The notes beneath the pieces are model-generated. The model saw only the letters and a list, made by a program, of their open reading frames with translations, was not told where the DNA came from and made no database searches. From Fidelibacterota bacterium (GTDB taxonomy: Bacteria; Fidelibacterota; UBA8477; JABMPR01): DNA of 64,000 bases. Where the stretch lies: assembly GCA_016845065.1 (NCBI GenBank), contig JAERTG010000050.1, positions 129,948 to 193,947 of the forward strand, given 5' to 3'. Shown piece by piece: positions 45,800 to 51,856 of the stretch; positions within the stretch are counted from its first letter, which is position 1; each line of letters begins with the position of its first letter. The translations under genes were made by a program, and so were the position numbers.

Positions 45800-48022
45800 C
45801 TACTTAAAATACTTTTTGCTTCGCAATAGCAAGGTATTGGTTACCACAGATACTGATGAGAAAGCCATTGCCATTCCAGCGAACATTGGGTTCAGAAGTG
45901 TTCCAGTGAAGGGATATAGAAGTCCCATCGCAATTGGGATCCCCGCGAGATTGTAGATGAAAGCCCAAAACAAGTTCTGGTGGATTTTAGAAATCGTGGC
46001 CTGGGCGATCCGGTGTCCAAAAACTAGATTATTCAATGAGTTATTCATAAATATGATATCTGCTGCATTCACAGCAATATCGGTTCCACCACCAAATGAT
46101 AGGCCAATATCAGCTGCAACAAGTGCTGGCGCATCGTTAATACCGTCGCCTAGCATACCTACAATCTTCCCTTCAGCCCTTAAAGCCTTTATGTGGTCAT
46201 GCTTATCAGAAGGTAGTACTTCTGACCTATAGTTTTGGATTCCAATTTGATGGGCAACCTGACAGGCAGCTTCTTCCTTATCCCCAGTCAAGAGGTAAGT
46301 CTGGATACCTTTTTCTGCGAGGGATTGGATAACTGCTGAGCTTTCCGACTTAATGGTATCAGAAAAAGCCACCAACCCTATTGGAGTGTCTTCTGCAAAG
46401 ACAGCTGAAACAATATATCCCCTGGTATAATACGCTTCTACAGTGTCTGAATAACTCTGTGGAAGCTTATCGGAGGTGTCAATTTTTCGAACACGATACA
46501 GAGTTTTATTGTTGTATCCTTCAAGGCCTCGGGCTGCTTCCTCTTTCACATCTGACATCTGCAACATTTGGATGGATTGGCTTGTTCCGTAGTCAATGAG
46601 AGTTTTCGCCAGTGGATGCTGGCTATGCTGCTCAAGCCCCATAGCAATTGCCAGATAGTGTAAATCTTCCTGTGGATAATGATCCACCAGTCGAGGCTTT
46701 GATTCTGTAATAGTCCCTGTCTTATCGAATACCATCATATCTACTTTACTTAACAATTGAAACGCGTCAGCTGATTTGATGAGGATGCCACCTCTTGCAG
46801 CAATACCACTTCCAACTACCAGAGCTGTAGGTGTTGCTAATCCCAGAGCACAGGGACAGGCAATGATCAATACAGAAATCATTACATTTATTGCGAATGT
46901 TAATCCATATCCCAGCATAAACCAGGTGATGCCACTAAGGACTGCAAGTCCAAGAACAACTGGGACAAATACGGAGGCAATTTTATCTACCAATTTTTGA
47001 ATTTTGGGTTTACCCATTTGAGCTTTTTCCACAAGATCTATGATCTGCCCAAACATGGAATAACGACCCACTTTCTCAGCCCGAATAATTAGTCCAGCCT
47101 GAAGGTTCAAACTAGCGCCTATCACCTGGCCACCCCTGAGTTTTTCAACTGGAAGTGATTCACCGCTGATTGCTGATTCATCCACAGAACTAGCTCCCTC
47201 TATGACCATTCCATCAACGGGAATTTTTGAATGGGGGTTTACTCGAATTTCATCTCCGTTTTTAACCTCATTAAGAGGAACCGTTATCCAATTCCCATCC
47301 TTTTTTACTTCAGCCTCAGTAGGCATATGTTCCATGAGTCCTGTAAGAGCTTCAGTGGATTTCCCTCTAGCCATAGCTTCCAACCATTTACCAAAGGTAA
47401 TAAAAAGTAGAATAGTTCCAGCTGCTTCGAAATAGAGTGTTTGAAATCCAATCAGACCCCAGCCCAACTGTATGTTTAGTGCGGAAACAAGTGAATAGAT
47501 ATAGGCTGAGCCTGTTCCAAGGGCGACCAGTGAATCCATATTGGGTACAAGCATGAGCAAATGCTTTATCCCTCGGTGGTAATAACCAAATCCGCTGATC
47601 ACGAGGATGGTAGCCAAAGCCAATTGGACCAGGATATTCCATTGAACTGGAAGCAATGGGTTCTCCAACATCATTTCCAGCATAGCATAGATAAGTAAGG
47701 GGATTCCAAAAACTGCTTGAATCAATAGTAAACGCTTCCAGGTAGCAATGGTACGTTGTTGCCGATGAACGAGGGAGGATGAACCCTGTGGTTCCAGTTT
47801 ATAGCCTATTTTCGAAACTGCTTTAGTCAACCTATTTATGGGAATTGATTCATCCGAAGTCACAATAGCTGATTCTGTAGCCAAATTAACCGATACTTCC
47901 TTGACACCAGGCAAGCCTTTTATGGCTGATTCAACAGAGGTGACACAGGCAGCACAGCTCATGCCTTCAACATCAAACTGATAATTATGTGATGGGGGGA
48001 TATCTGTATCTTTTTCGGGCAT
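45800..48022 (-). CDS. copA: Copper-translocating P1B-type ATPase with N-terminal HMA domain
   Basis: GMSCAACVTSVE (HMA domain), CPC (ACPCALGLATP), DKTGTIT, and GDGINDAP. Confidence 0.95.
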   Translation of the reverse strand: MPEKDTDIPPSHNYQFDVEGMSCAACVTSVESAIKGLPGVKEVSVNLATESAIVTSDESIPINRLTKAVSKIGYKLEPQGSSSLVHRQQRTIATWKRLLLIQAVFGIPLLIYAMLEMMLENPLLPVQWNILVQLALATILVISGFGYYHRGIKHLLMLVPNMDSLVALGTGSAYIYSLVSALNIQLGWGLIGFQTLYFEAAGTILLFITFGKWLEAMARGKSTEALTGLMEHMPTEAEVKKDGNWITVPLNEVKNGDEIRVNPHSKIPVDGMVIEGASSVDESAISGESLPVEKLRGGQVIGASLNLQAGLIIRAEKVGRYSMFGQIIDLVEKAQMGKPKIQKLVDKIASVFVPVVLGLAVLSGITWFMLGYGLTFAINVMISVLIIACPCALGLATPTALVVGSGIAARGGILIKSADAFQLLSKVDMMVFDKTGTITESKPRLVDHYPQEDLHYLAIAMGLEQHSQHPLAKTLIDYGTSQSIQMLQMSDVKEEAARGLEGYNNKTLYRVRKIDTSDKLPQSYSDTVEAYYTRGYIVSAVFAEDTPIGLVAFSDTIKSESSAVIQSLAEKGIQTYLLTGDKEEAACQVAHQIGIQNYRSEVLPSDKHDHIKALRAEGKIVGMLGDGINDAPALVAADIGLSFGGGTDIAVNAADIIFMNNSLNNLVFGHRIAQATISKIHQNLFWAFIYNLAGIPIAMGLLYPFTGTLLNPMFAGMAMAFSSVSVVTNTLLLRSKKYFK

Positions 48023-48150: not shown

Positions 48151-48351
48151 ATGTGGCAATCAAAAAAAGTCATTGTTATTGGATCTGGTTTTGCGGGTCA
48201 GACTGCCGCGCTCTACCTGGGTGATTCACTTTGGGATGGATCTGCAGCTGTGATAATCGCTCACCCCATTGTGCCTGATTGGAAGAAATACCCAGTGAGT
48301 GGGAGGGATATGTTTGTCTCAAACATGGAGATGGGACTGTCCGGTGCATGA
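48151..48351 (+). pseudogene. Probable N-terminal remnant of a FAD/NAD(P)-binding oxidoreductase (SQR/Ndh-like)
   Basis: 66-aa ORF. It begins with a dinucleotide-binding Rossmann motif KKVIVIGSGFAGQTAALYL and then stops. It is followed by ~285 bp with no ORF. Confidence 0.35.
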
Positions 48352-48637
48352 ATGAAGCGCATGATTCATACAACTTTCAACCACAAATTACGCGGTCGCA
48401 TGGGTTGGTCGCTAATTCCTGAATAGGAGCACCTCATGGAAATCACCAAAACTCAGCGTTTTCTTATGAACTGCAAAGCCTTTCAACTTTATCGCTTTGT
48501 TGTATTGAACCTGAAAATACTCAAAGGTGTAAGTCAGGCGAAACGTTCTTAAGCGATCATCACTGCACAGCAAATCTATCTCAATAATTATATTGCATTA
48601 TATTTGTGATAATTATTATCATGTAATTACTTGATGA

Positions 48638-49666
48638 ATGACCTTTGATGAGTTATATCTGAAGATGAAGAATTTAATGAAAACATTGTTAAGTGGGATG
48701 TCGCTCCTGATAATCCTGGGAAGCTGTAGCGATATGGGTGAACCAGAGATTCTGTTACCACAGATGGAAGTAGAAACAACCCTAATTGATTTCTCTACTG
48801 TAACCATTGGATCTCCCCAAACGAGACAGATTCTGATTGTTAATACTGGTGAAGGTGAGCTTAAGGGTGACTTGAGTCTGGTTCAGGACAGTTCTGTATA
48901 TGCACTTCAGCCCAACGGCGCATTTACTCTATCCAATGATGACACTCTGGTAGCTGAATTATCTTTTACTCCTTCTGCTGAATTTACATATACTGCTCAA
49001 ATTATAATCAGCAGTGACGACCTGGGAAATCCTGAACATGTAGTTGATCTTAACGGCGTGGGCACAGCCTTACCCGTACCAGCACTGACCGTTTCAAGCA
49101 CCAGCTTGAATTTTGGAACCATACTGACTGATAGTAGTAGCCAACAGCAAATCACTCTTAGTAGTACAGGAAATGATACCTTGTTGATTTCATCAATTGC
49201 TTTTGACCTGTCTGCTTATCGTGTTGATGTGGGCACACCACTCGAACTGATTCCTGGTGCTTCGCAAACTCTGACTATCACCTTTCATTCTGATGAAGCA
49301 GGAACCTTTAATGGGAACCTTTCTATTGTATCAAATAGCCCATCCACACCGGATGTTGTCTCACTCTCAGGCGTGACGGAAGCAGCTGTGAGTTATGCAG
49401 CAGCGATCCAGCCAGTTTGGGACGCCAGTTGTGGTGGGTGCCATGGTTCAAATGGTGGATTAAATTTAACATCGTATAATAATCTCATGTTGGGAACCTC
49501 TTCCAACGGACCTGCTGTGATTCCTTTTGATGGTGCAAATAGTTTGATCATCAGACGAATTGATGGGACAACTGGTGGACTTATGCCACAGGGCGGTCCT
49601 TCTCTCTCAGCAAGTACCATTGCTACAATTGAAACGTGGATCAACCAGGGAGCGCTAAACAATTGA
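48638..49666 (+). CDS. Lipoprotein with Ig-like (HYDIN/ASH-type) repeats and a C-terminal PSCyt1-type mono-heme cytochrome c domain
   Basis: Likely start MKTLLSGMSLLIILGSCSD at 48677. Heme-binding CGGCHG, followed by the pattern ...GGLNL...GPAVIPFDGANSLI...GGLMPQGGPSLS...IETWINQGA typical of the Planctomycete cytochrome C domain. Confidence 0.6.
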   Translation: MTFDELYLKMKNLMKTLLSGMSLLIILGSCSDMGEPEILLPQMEVETTLIDFSTVTIGSPQTRQILIVNTGEGELKGDLSLVQDSSVYALQPNGAFTLSNDDTLVAELSFTPSAEFTYTAQIIISSDDLGNPEHVVDLNGVGTALPVPALTVSSTSLNFGTILTDSSSQQQITLSSTGNDTLLISSIAFDLSAYRVDVGTPLELIPGASQTLTITFHSDEAGTFNGNLSIVSNSPSTPDVVSLSGVTEAAVSYAAAIQPVWDASCGGCHGSNGGLNLTSYNNLMLGTSSNGPAVIPFDGANSLIIRRIDGTTGGLMPQGGPSLSASTIATIETWINQGALNN

Positions 49667-50754
49667 AATTACTTATTCGAATTACTCTCATTAGTCTAAC
49701 TACTGCTAGTCTTTTCGCACTTCCCAGGTTTGCCATGATGGAGGAAGTCAGTTGTGGAACCTGTCATTCCTACCAGGGTGGTGGTGGCAACAGGACTGCG
49801 TATGGAGAAGAATATGCCCGAGAAAGTCTAATCATGCGAGATTTCTCACTGCCCTGGGAGAATGAGGACAATGATTTCCCCGTTTATTTTGGTGCAGATA
49901 CAAGATATCAAATGATTGCTCAGGCAGATGAAGACCTGAGGCAGTTTCCCATGCAGTTTTCACTCTATGGTGGGGTTGAACTGGGTAGTCTCATCGCGCA
50001 TGCTGAAGTTTCCAGGATATCTGAGGAAATTAGAGTAGCGGGTGGTCTCAGGTATGAGGAGTTGCCACTTGAGAGTTGGGTTGGTCTGGCCAAGGCAATG
50101 CCGGTCTTGGGATGGAGGATAGATGATCATAGCATTTTTACCCGCGGTGGCAACCTGACACTCCAGGGCCTTTCCCGTGAGGGCATGCCGTATACTCCAT
50201 TTATGGAATCACCTGAAATGGTTCAGTTTGGAACTTCCTTCATCTATGGATTTGATCTAACGTTCATGGCAGGTACTCCATTTATTGATCCGACCAGGAC
50301 ACTCGATGCCAAGCTCTTTAAGGCTGCGAAAATGAATTACCAACTATCTGGAGATCTTTTTTCAGCCCAGATAGGTCTGGCATATTTTGACGAGAATGAT
50401 CTGATAAGCGGATCCGTTGCCAGCTGGGGTTTGTCTAGTCATGGATTTGTCTGGTTGGGTGAGTGGTCTCAAATGAATGGATGGATACAACCTGAAATCA
50501 CCAACTTAGCCACGATGCATCAATTGAGTTACCGCTTATTTCAGGGTTTGGATCTGGTTGGGCGCTATGAATTTTTTGATCCTGACGTTGATCTTACCAC
50601 TGGTGCCATCCAGCGAACCAGTCTGGGTGTAGAGTTTTTTCCTCTTCGAAGTGTAGAGATGAAATTGAGTTATCGGACCAGCACGCTAGATTTACCTGAT
50701 AGCAGTCCTGATTCCGAATCACAGATATTGAGTCAGATTCACTTCTATCTCTAG
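49636..50754 (+). CDS. Putative outer-membrane beta-barrel protein with an N-terminal CXXCH heme motif
   Basis: Probable TTG start at 49663 (in frame), giving the signal peptide KLLIRITLISLTTASLFA. CGTCHS lies just after the signal. Amphipathic beta-strands run to the C-terminus (...LSQIHFYL). Confidence 0.5.
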   Translation: MDQPGSAKQLKLLIRITLISLTTASLFALPRFAMMEEVSCGTCHSYQGGGGNRTAYGEEYARESLIMRDFSLPWENEDNDFPVYFGADTRYQMIAQADEDLRQFPMQFSLYGGVELGSLIAHAEVSRISEEIRVAGGLRYEELPLESWVGLAKAMPVLGWRIDDHSIFTRGGNLTLQGLSREGMPYTPFMESPEMVQFGTSFIYGFDLTFMAGTPFIDPTRTLDAKLFKAAKMNYQLSGDLFSAQIGLAYFDENDLISGSVASWGLSSHGFVWLGEWSQMNGWIQPEITNLATMHQLSYRLFQGLDLVGRYEFFDPDVDLTTGAIQRTSLGVEFFPLRSVEMKLSYRTSTLDLPDSSPDSESQILSQIHFYL

Positions 50755-50800: not shown

Positions 50801-51856
50801 CTATTTCTGCAGGGAAATGCGTGGTTCAGCGCTTGAATTGCTGATTTCGCCAATAATTGTAGCCTCACTAACATCATTGGCATGAAGATCTTCAATGAAG
50901 GCTTCGGCATGGGTCGCTGGGATACTTACCAGTAGACCGCCAGAAGTCTGGGGATCAACTACCAATAATTCTTCCAATCTGTTGACATTCACTCCAACCG
51001 ACAACCGAGGTTTGTAGAAGGCGTGATTGTTTTTTAACCCACCTGGCACCACTTTTTGTTCAGCGTAATCATAGGTTCCTGGGAGGACAGGAAGTTGGTC
51101 TATAAATATTTTTGCATCCATAAAGCTGGAATCCAACATTTCCAGCAAGTGACCAACCAAACCATAGCCTGTCACATCGGTCATGGCATTTACATTGTAT
51201 TTCGCCACCACATCGGCTGCATACTTATTCAATTTGATCATGCTTGCAATCATGGAGTCCAGCTGATCGGGAGCGATTATCTTGCGTTTCAACGCTGTGG
51301 CAACAATCCCAGTACCCAGAGGCTTGGTGAGAACCAGTACATCTCCAGGTTGAGCTCCACCATTCGAAATAATTTTGTCAGGGTGGACTACTCCTGTGAC
51401 AGAGAGTCCATATTTTAACTCATCATCCTTTATTGAATGCCCCCCTGCAAGTACCGCACCTGATTCGTTGATCTTACTCAGACCTCCACGCAGAATATCT
51501 CGCAGCACGGAATTGTCCATATCATCCACAGGGAAACCAACGATGTTCAATGCAGTAATGGGTTTAGCACCCATGGCATAGAGATCACTAAATGCATTAG
51601 CTGCAGTGATTTGTCCAAATGTGAATGGATCATCCACAATAGGTGTAAAGAAGTCTAAAGATTGGACAACAGCAATGTCCTCACTCACCTTGAAAGCAGA
51701 GCTGTCATCGCGATGGTCAATCCCTACGAGCAGGTCGGGATGTGATGGAATATCAATCCCGCAAAGTATGTCGTCCAGGTCCCCTGGACCGATTTTACCT
51801 GCTCAGCCAGCGGCCTTGACTTTTGCGGTTAGATTTATTTCTAAGCTTCTTGTCAT
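50801..51856 (-). CDS. selD: Selenophosphate synthetase (selenide, water dikinase), selenocysteine-containing form with in-frame TGA at 51803..51805
   Basis: The ORF track starts at 51688. Manual translation upstream gives MTRSLEINLTAKVKAAG-U-AGKIGPGDLDDIL..., which aligns with the E. coli SHGAGCGCKISP region and places TGA (Sec) at Cys17. The rest matches SelD along its length. Confidence 0.85.
51773..51789 (-). promoter_or_regulatory. SECIS-like hairpin, 13 nt 3' of the selD UGA
   Basis: Perfect inverted repeat GUCCAGG-GGA-CCUGGAC on the mRNA. The plus strand reads gtccaggtcccctggac. Confidence 0.55.

Follow-up and report, generated by a model that had tools for sequence, protein, structure and literature searches.

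Two consecutive genes in a 64,000-nucleotide (nt) stretch of DNA from a Fidelibacterota bacterium (assembly GCA_016845065.1, contig JAERTG010000050.1, positions 129,948 to 193,947; hereafter the window, with a guanine-plus-cytosine (GC) content of ~43%) each encode a protein with a single CXXCH haem-binding motif, and the pair lies between the copper-ATPase gene copA and the selenoprotein gene selD. What such a pair might do at the cell envelope, on which substrate and with electrons moving in which direction, is the question that the locus raises. The comparisons presented here indicate that gene 2, a haem-bearing porin, and gene 1, a lipoprotein cytochrome, very probably represent a fused cytochrome-porin of the Cyc2 type and its cognate cytochrome. 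With distinctly less assurance, but still as our preferred reading, we propose that the two proteins act together as a minimal conduit of two haems, organized like Cyc2, which carries electrons through the outer membrane and oxidizes a dissolved metal, probably Fe(II).

The two genes are tightly coupled (Table 1). The most probable start of gene 2 is a TTG within AATTGAAA that overlaps the TGA stop of gene 1 by 4 nt, and an orthologous locus (L002; loci are cited by their L numbers) shows the identical stop/start arrangement; the start of gene 1 is best placed at the ATG at 48665, because most aligned orthologues begin at the corresponding MKNL position. Over the 50 nonoverlapping open reading frames (ORFs) of the window (20,120 residues) CXXCH occurs twice, once in each gene of the pair, against a composition-based expectation of 0.012. 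Neither motif varies in the orthologues, which are 43-85% identical overall (n = 23, at 45-85%, for gene 2 and n = 22 for gene 1). The CXXCH pair is a real observation, far beyond chance. The window belongs to the genome of an uncultured member of Marinimicrobia (SAR406/Marinisomatota), and exact or near-exact copies of both proteins are present in metagenome-assembled genomes (MAGs) named Candidatus Marinimicrobia/Neomarinimicrobiota.

No family model in Pfam or NCBIfam matches gene 2, and a sequence search of the PDB with its profile returned nothing meaningful. The protein opens with a predicted signal peptide (MKLLIRITLISLTTASLFA, followed by LPRFA), called from the sequence pattern as a hydrophobic N-terminal segment that ends in A-x-P and is conserved in orthologues; AlphaFold2 models residues 2-10 as a helix. 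CGTCH (residues 31-35) is the sole CXXCH of gene 2 and is invariant in alignments of both 23 and 65 sequences. In orthologues the signal peptide leads into A-x-P-R-F-A-x6-C-x-x-C-H-x-x-x-G-G-G-x-R, and the protein closes with Q-x-H-x-[YW]-[LF]; within the haem segment P21, C31, C34, H35, G40 and R44 vary little or not at all, and C31, C34, H35, G40, R44, G77, M97, G150 and H360 are retained without exception by the 65 diverse family members, with H156 nearly invariant as well. The remainder of the protein is modeled as a 16-strand barrel, at a predicted local distance difference test score (pLDDT) of 67 when 23 sequences are supplied and, again with 16 strands, at pLDDT 89.1 and a predicted template modeling score (pTM) of 0.86 with the 65 diverse sequences, where the haem segment too is confidently placed (pLDDT 78-91 over residues 21-60). 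Foldseek aligns the model with the 16-strand porins Omp32, OmpF, OmpU and PorB (E 3e-10 to 1e-8, template modeling score ~0.5-0.6). The longest nonstrand stretch, the loop between strands 5 and 6 (pLDDT 83-93), holds the most conserved motif of the family, P-x-x-G-W-R-x-D-D-H-x-x-F-x-R-G-G-N, with D154-D155-H156 encoded at 50122-50130. General porins have their constriction loop L3 at this position, and the D-D-H cluster is a candidate for cation binding or for the constriction itself, or else might supply a second haem ligand; M97, H156 and H360 are the candidates for the sixth ligand of the porin haem. Gene 2 shares with the general porins their fold and, in its long loop, the L3 position, whereas those proteins have no haem-binding N-terminal extension and are only 8-15% identical to it in sequence.

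The signal peptide of gene 1 ends in a lipobox, LIILGS-C21 (LGSC), whose cysteine hardly varies among orthologues and is kept by almost all partner homologues. Two immunoglobulin (Ig)-like domains follow (63.2 bits against PF22544 and 56.4 bits against PF15780 in Pfam; 92.2 bits against the choice-of-anchor D model NF012200 in NCBIfam), and the C-terminal domain matches the PSCyt1 family (PF07635) at 29.7 bits, above its gathering cut-off of 22. Downstream of its haem motif, M307-P308 is invariant in all 22 gene 1 orthologues and stands at the usual site of the distal methionine ligand. When 25 homologues of this cytochrome domain are combined into a profile, its best match of solved structure is the Fe(II) oxidoreductase FoxE (5mab; E 2.1e-15, over both FoxE haem domains), followed by the C-terminal cytochrome of hydrazine synthase alpha. 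The mature N-terminus has a signature of its own: 54 of the 55 occurrences of C-[ST]-D-[MLF]-G, counted over all ORFs of the fetched loci, fall in homologues of the cytochrome partner, and the motif is found in none of the four other lipobox-like ORFs of the window. This N-terminus may act as a signal for sorting or as a peptide that docks on the porin.

An earlier note, made from the letters of this DNA alone, had read the locus as a porin-cytochrome-like envelope redox module, and the anatomy, coupling and conserved motifs described above bear that general reading out. The particulars hold as well: the 4-nt overlap and the motif count confirm two coupled consecutive genes with one CXXCH each, and the expectation of 0.012 confirms that two chance occurrences in adjacent genes would be unlikely; the conservation of the motifs in orthologues, which the note had set as a check, is complete; its lipoprotein with HYDIN/ASH-type Ig repeats and a PSCyt1 domain is recovered through the lipobox, the Pfam and NCBIfam matches and a PSCyt1 hidden Markov model (HMM) score above cut-off; its proposed outer-membrane barrel emerges from the beta-barrel prediction with 16 strands, high pLDDT and porin matches in Foldseek; and its flanks, a Cu-ATPase gene and a selenoprotein gene, are assured by a TIGR01511 match and an in-frame TGA. 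The same evidence weighs on the plainest alternative, namely that gene 2 is an ordinary diffusion porin next to an unrelated surface lipoprotein and that the CXXCH motifs are coincidental or serve a non-haem role such as a disulfide or metal binding. That the Foldseek matches are general porins and that no curated family recognizes gene 2 would sit well with this explanation, but two motifs in adjacent genes far exceed the number expected in the window, Cys-x-x-Cys-His is invariant across 65 diverse family members, the gene 1 domain scores above the Pfam gathering threshold for a cytochrome family with its distal methionine kept, and at least 66 of 80 species loci have both families. We consider it highly improbable.

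The note had also stated that no characterized system of this composition was known, and here it was wrong: the gene 1 domain is FoxE-like, and a fused monohaem cytochrome-porin adjoining a periplasmic cytochrome is the Cyc2/Cyc1 arrangement (PMC8406198). Cyc2 is an outer-membrane Fe(II) oxidase in which a signal peptide and a single N-terminal CXXCH precede a fused 16-strand porin; it is defined by AXPXFAR[Q/K][T/Y] upstream of the haem site, PXL at +4 downstream, a length of at least 365 residues and a predicted porin, where the length limit is the filter of FeGenie and related pipelines and most confirmed members have at least 400 residues (PMC8406198). As for gene 2, neither Pfam nor NCBIfam holds a model for canonical Cyc2, and Cyc2-type references were recovered by tblastn with an N-terminal motif, used as a lead only, and by a protein-database search. 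The tblastn matches (up to 74% identity, E 1e-11) fall on plasmids of Ralstonia, Caballeronia, Paraburkholderia, Ideonella, Methylocystis, Acidiphilium/Acidithiobacillus and Polymorphobacter and yield ORFs of 444-508 residues with A[LV]P[AS]FARQTGxxCxxCHxxFPEL; the database search, started from the Caballeronia Cyc2-type protein, found 5,564 relatives.

In profile-profile comparison by hhalign the full-length gene 2 family and the Cyc2-type proteins align at Prob 96.5-96.6% (E 5.5e-10 to 8e-10), carried by the haem segment, and still at Prob 95% once the signal peptides are removed; the HMM of the gene 2 family scores 13-28 bits against Cyc2-type proteins, at the N-terminus only. Gene 2 reads A19-L-P-R-F-A24, six residues and Cys31, so that its Pro-to-Cys spacing equals that of the Cyc2 type (ALPAFARQTGLACVACH), with a glycine at the matching position. 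Comparison of the barrels alone gives no signal (Prob 0.5-1.4%), and homology to Cyc2 is demonstrable over only ~30 residues. The R-[Q/K]-[T/Y] element is absent, being M/L-M-E in gene 2 (MME) and its orthologues and variable in the wider family, with such residues as LQE, ART and ARY; PXL at +4 occurs in none of 125 near-full-length family representatives, 113 of which have GG..R. Because the barrel-only comparison is blank, full membership of gene 2 in Cyc2 was rejected. Sequence comparison instead places gene 2 in a separate family, without a curated model, that follows the Cyc2 plan and shares the ancestry of its haem segment. What it has in common with Cyc2 of Acidithiobacillus ferrooxidans, Cyc2PV-1 of Mariprofundus and Cyt572 of Leptospirillum is a signal peptide, a CXXCH near the mature N-terminus, A-x-P-x-F-A at equal spacing, a fused 16-strand porin and an adjoining gene for a periplasmic c-type cytochrome. 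It differs from them in having (G)GGxR for PXL, no R[Q/K][T/Y], 363 rather than 444-508 residues, a barrel without detectable sequence similarity and the family's own FPMQ, GWRxDDHxxFxRGGN and QxHxWF motifs, and in its partner, a lipoprotein with a FoxE-like domain as opposed to the dihaem c4 cytochrome Cyc1. Canonical Cyc2-type genes are found on plasmids and megaplasmids (L093-L100), where the usual annotation is 'hypothetical protein' or 'cytochrome C'. Most of the plasmid records examined have a gene for a c-type cytochrome next, and a HiPIP gene lies upstream in Caballeronia; the plasmid copies of Acidiphilium and A. ferrooxidans are identical over the 455-residue reading frames extracted.

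FoxE of Rhodobacter ferrooxidans SW2 (5mab), a periplasmic dihaem Fe(II) oxidoreductase, is the corresponding relative of gene 1, and the two share the pattern CxxCH...GL(N/S)LT.Y...M.G...(V)IPGD..S......RMP......I..WI..GA. FoxE counts as one of the canonical Fe(II)-oxidation proteins (PMC10654088). In gene 1 a single haem domain takes the place of two in tandem; the protein is a lipoprotein with two N-terminal Ig-like domains and is encoded with a cytochrome-porin (and copA nearby) rather than with foxY and foxZ in a foxEYZ operon. With a single cytochrome domain behind two Ig domains and no foxEYZ context, gene 1 was rejected as FoxE proper.

How far the pairing extends can be gauged from the family as a whole. 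A profile search of 1.84 billion cluster representatives (50% identity clusters) places 728 proteins in the gene 2 family at E<=1e-3 and 264 at E<=1e-10. Among 125 near-full-length hits, with a median length of 378 residues, CXXCH lies within the first 90 residues in 121 and occurs exactly once in 115. A scan of one genome per species with a 22-sequence alignment likewise identified 125 relatives carrying DH[TS]x[FY][TI]RGGN, and 80 loci were kept for neighborhood analysis, ORFs being called in all of them and searched with the proteins of the window. Nearly all of these loci belong to Marinimicrobia/Neomarinimicrobiota, Fidelibacterota or MAGs without an assigned phylum, with a few from Ignavibacteria, Chlorobiaceae and Bacteroidota; the wider family reaches high-GC lineages. 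In at least 66 of the 80 the porin gene is directly preceded, in its own orientation, by a homologue of the gene 1 cytochrome domain. The spacing is mostly -30 to +100 nt, and overlaps of 4 nt are common; several of the others end at a contig edge or have the partner downstream (L088, L010). The partner cytochromes have 128-350 residues and are almost all lipoproteins. The gene 2 family and the partner cytochrome family are obligately paired. Some partners carry unusual haem-attachment motifs, CX3CH (CGNNCH, CANNCH) or CX4CH (CATSGCH, CALSGCH, CAVSDCH, CVNQGCH), at the alignment position of CXXCH (L049, L051, L054, L060, L072-L074, L076 and L080, and also L010 and L011).

Two operon types can be distinguished. 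In type A, comprising the window, 14 orthologue loci and the L007/L047 clade, a divergent copA precedes an Ig-Ig-cytochrome lipoprotein and the cytochrome-porin. Type B (59 loci, within L027-L092, e.g. L046 7552-9363) has no copA and consists of a short cytochrome lipoprotein, the cytochrome-porin and, within ~10 nt of the porin gene, a dihaem cytochrome of ~115 residues (NF033196, 74.7 bits against a cut-off of 70; CytoC_RC-like, with CxFCH and CWxCH motifs), so that four haems in total are distributed over three cytochrome proteins, the porin included; an Omp85/POTRA gene then follows in 30 loci and a gene for a DUF2231 membrane protein in 14. A high-GC relative (L101 695-5236) presents yet another order, in which a PSCyt1 protein, a cupredoxin (PF00127), the cytochrome-porin, a CarboxypepD_reg protein and a dihaem cytochrome c are encoded in succession. 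This order parallels the Cyc2/rusticyanin/Cyc1 logic of Acidithiobacillus, whose gene set runs cyc2-cyc1-...-rus (PMC10654088). The type A, type B and L101 contexts show the cytochrome-porin to be part of a short series of electron carriers in the periplasm.

These gene orders and haem counts also bear on the possibility that the pair belongs to an extracellular electron transfer complex of the Mtr/Pcc porin-cytochrome type, or to a selenium or metalloid redox system tied to selD. Like MtrCAB, MtoAB/PioAB and the Geobacter Pcc systems, the pair would use a haem-holding barrel to pass electrons over the outer membrane, with a lipoprotein or periplasmic cytochrome partner in the same operon. In those systems, however, a larger haem-free sheath surrounds a separate multihaem cytochrome, whereas here the haem lies within the 16-strand barrel protein itself and the partner is monohaem: MtrA and MtoA are decahaem proteins and the MtrB-type sheath has 26 strands (PMC8406198), and the Pcc cytochromes are given as 8- to 12-haem (PMC4245776). 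Membership in Mtr, Mto, Pio or Pcc was therefore rejected on the 16 strands, the haem motif within the barrel protein instead of on a separate inserted cytochrome, and the single CXXCH per protein. As for selenium, which the note had suggested, selD does lie 47 nt downstream in the window, but on the other strand, and orthologous loci either have unrelated genes for proteins of 1,319 and 1,996 residues between the pair and selD or no selD at that position; it is absent from the type B operons as well. The selenium link was rejected on this synteny, and a role tied to selD is not borne out. Either form of this explanation strikes us as very remote.

For the two-haem conduit that we favor, the following course can be envisaged. 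Gene 2 would be exported by its signal peptide and receive one haem c at C31-x-x-C34-H35, right after A-x-P-x-F-A, while the remainder folds as a 16-strand porin with the haem at the mouth of the pore or inside it. Gene 1, made from the same mRNA, would be lipidated at Cys21 and present one His/Met-ligated haem c in its FoxE-like domain, with the two Ig-like domains as spacers. A reduced metal ion, small and dissolved and most probably Fe2+, could then enter the pore as far as the haem, perhaps guided by the D-D-H loop, and be oxidized there, its electron passing to the lipoprotein cytochrome and on to periplasmic or inner-membrane carriers and the respiratory chain. We infer that haem is attached, that the proteins touch each other, which substrate is used, which way the electrons flow and what purpose is served (energy, detoxification or iron acquisition). 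That Fe(II) is the substrate we hold to be a close call, falling slightly on the doubtful side. It is favored because the nearest characterized relatives, Cyc2 and FoxE, are both Fe(II) oxidases, because an iron-type operator precedes the operon and because the titles of the closest MAGs suggest redoxcline-type waters. Those record titles carry SI036/SI053, which we take to denote Saanich Inlet, as well as BS150m and Tobar13m. BS150m is the label of a 150 m redoxcline sample in the Black Sea MAG paper, and together the titles suggest stratified, redoxcline-type waters.

The iron-type operator is a perfect 7-1-7 palindrome, TGATAATTATTATCA, 44 nt before gene 1, which we predict to be a Fur box; the 7-1-7 consensus for Fur is reportedly that of Baichoo and Helmann in 2002. 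It is the sole exact match in the window, and 100 shuffles gave 0. Orthologues have a ~32-bp block at the same position, rTGAyAAAwATrGTCATGTnAnTnCTTGAtGA, with 1-5 mismatches to the Fur box. A gene repressed by Fur is on under iron scarcity, and this opens an alternative in which the Fur-controlled pair, expressed under iron limitation, runs outward or serves iron acquisition. Electrons from periplasmic carriers would go by way of the lipoprotein cytochrome to the porin haem and reduce extracellular Fe(III) or another oxidant, with the Fe2+ so formed entering through the pore, or else the pair would be a haem ferroxidase for oxidase-dependent Fe2+ uptake. Besides the unique perfect box and the element at a conserved position in orthologues, the choice-of-anchor D Ig domains, typical of surface proteins, agree with such a role; the acidic, family-specific CSDMGEPE could be a surface-export or docking signal, and a single haem is chemically reversible. 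Yet the Fur match is degraded in most orthologues (3-5 mismatches), the box is not enriched over background upstream of the 59 type B operons, no ferrous or ferric transporter gene adjoins the pair in the loci examined, and the nearest characterized relatives, Cyc2 and FoxE, are oxidases. Given the lack of type B enrichment, iron regulation cannot be extended to the whole family. We regard an outward conduit or one for iron acquisition as unlikely, if to be kept in view.

It is also important to note what speaks against the Fe(II)-oxidizing conduit. To the blank barrel comparison, the short reach of the homology and the missing R[Q/K][T/Y] and PXL elements must be added that predicted Fur control fits iron acquisition better than energy gain from Fe(II), and that the Fur box is perfect in this genome only; the conserved copA adjacency of type A hints at copper. 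Within the 64-kb window we found no CcsA/CcmF-type W-rich motif, no ccm or ccs genes and no other CXXCH proteins, and no terminal oxidases are visible there. To our knowledge, Marinimicrobia are not known as iron oxidizers, and we found no literature linking Cyc2-like proteins to Marinimicrobia, Marinisomatota or SAR406.

The hint at copper deserves weighing in its own right. The product of copA scores 549.6 bits against TIGR01511 (cut-off 397) and has HMA and E1-E2 ATPase domains and a CPC motif, and the divergent gene adjoins the pair in 13 of the 14 orthologue loci and in L007/L047, i.e., in 15 species loci. In the L007/L047 clade the porin is 28% identical, the outer flanks differ and copZ is added, and copA is kept. 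The pair might accordingly be a copper module in which Cu(I) exported by CopA is oxidized to the less toxic Cu(II) or leaves through the pore, a haem-based analogue of CueO/PcoAB. A periplasmic redox protein and an outer-membrane barrel beside copper-export genes is indeed the logic of PcoAB (PMC5566968); the oxidases there are, however, multicopper oxidases without sequence relationship to ours, and copA linkage is confined here to one operon subtype. The 59 type B operons, which have no copA, keep the D-D-H and R-G-G-N residues and the haem segment, which means that the substrate site is shared beyond the copA-linked subtype. The Ig domains of gene 1 lack conserved Cu(I) motifs rich in Met, Cys or His, the invariant columns of the gene 1 alignment being mostly Gly, Pro, Leu and Phe, and no cop-type operator was recognized in the intergenic region between copA and gene 1. 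The gene order is moreover kept throughout the type A orthologue clade, the genes for a DksA-like protein, a DUF3467 protein and a peptidase M23 included, which makes copA adjacency alone weak evidence. Of the copper role entertained in the note, then, the conserved neighbor stands, but the same pore-loop residues recur where no copA is present, and we rate the copper module as improbable, more so than iron acquisition. We found no earlier description of copA with Cyc2.

If the favored conduit is real, its interest would rest on its spread in an abundant uncultured ocean phylum and on its testability, and not on copA or selD. Cyc2 is the main genetic marker for iron-oxidizing bacteria in metagenomes. 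The usual pipeline asks for PXFAR[Q/K][T/Y] and at least 365 residues (PMC8406198). Gene 2, at 363 residues, falls just below that length, as do 28 of the 125 family representatives, and since the motif and length filters pass the family over, marker-based surveys probably do not see it. Marinimicrobia/SAR406 and Fidelibacterota abound in the deep sea, in redoxclines and in oxygen-minimum zones, all of them settings with gradients of Fe(II), Mn(II) and Cu(I). A haem-based outer-membrane metal-redox module, composed of the fused cytochrome-porin, the FoxE-like lipoprotein and in most species the dihaem cytochrome, could conceivably be a widespread unrecognized trait of these lineages, a generalization that we put forward tentatively and think rather unlikely as it stands. 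It would mean that one of the most abundant lineages of oxygen-minimum zones, redoxclines and the dark ocean oxidizes (or reduces) dissolved iron at its surface, and the subtype in the window would be a Fur-controlled, copA-linked specialization. Should electrons pass between metal and cell in this way, these bacteria would be a major uncounted player in marine iron (or copper) redox cycling, and biochemists could study a conduit as small as two proteins with two haems. Heterologous expression, as already carried out with Cyc2, offers a direct test of the hypothesis. Fused cytochrome-porins as a kind are known; what is new is the distinct signature of this family and its constant FoxE-like lipoprotein partner.

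Table 1. Positions in the window of the gene pair, its predicted elements and the neighboring genes
Feature	Position	Strand	Remarks
Gene 1	48665..49666	+	Lipoprotein monohaem cytochrome c, 333 residues; alternative upstream ATG at 48638
Lipobox Cys21 of gene 1	48725-48727	+	Mature N-terminus CSDMGEPE follows, family-specific
Ig-like domains 1 and 2 of gene 1	~48746-49033, ~49079-49375	+	ASH/HYDIN/Cep192_D4; choice-of-anchor D
Class-I cytochrome c domain of gene 1	49400..49648	+	C-terminal; PSCyt1/FoxE-like
CGGCH of gene 1	49430-49444	+	Haem motif, C256/C259/H260
Met-Pro of gene 1, M307-P308	49583-49588	+	Distal-ligand candidate
Gene 2	49663..50754	+	Fused monohaem cytochrome-porin, 363 residues; longest ORF from 49636
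Signal peptide of gene 2	49663-49719	+	Predicted
Haem-binding segment of gene 2	49717..49806	+	A19-L-P-R-F-A-x6-C31GTCH35-SYQGGGGNR44-TAYG
CGTCH of gene 2	49753-49767	+	Haem motif, C31/C34/H35
16-strand beta-barrel of gene 2	49882..50748	+	Residues 74-362; AlphaFold2; Q-x-H-x-[YW]-[LF] at its end is conserved
Loop between strands 5 and 6 of gene 2	50095..50214	+	Residues 145-184
Fur box	48607..48621		Perfect 7-1-7 palindrome; predicted site, distance measured to the gene 1 start
copA	45800..48022	-	Cu+ P1B-type ATPase; divergent neighbor of gene 1
selD	50801-51856	-	Downstream of gene 2, opposite strand
SQR-like remnant	48151-48426	+	Decayed flavoprotein
Companion ORF	48436-48552	+	38 residues

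The flanks of the pair hold some further features of their own. A scan of the locus for sigma-70 promoters and terminators gave counts not above those of shuffles. In selD an in-frame TGA (51803-51805) occupies the active-site position, KAAG-U-AGKIGPGDL, from which it follows that the organism uses selenocysteine. Between copA and gene 1 lies a decayed SQR-like flavoprotein that keeps residues 1-25 and 411-479 of a 479-residue protein found intact in L001 (5299-6738) and L023; an in-frame deletion at an LGD(A/S)/MGDS microhomology removed what lies between, and a TGG has become TGA at 48349-48351. The flavoprotein was considered as a third component of the system and rejected, being intact in only these two loci, decayed in the window and absent elsewhere, and it is therefore dispensable for the gene pair. 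Its 38-residue companion ORF is intact and 82% identical to its L001 counterpart, which suggests that the small protein is kept independently.

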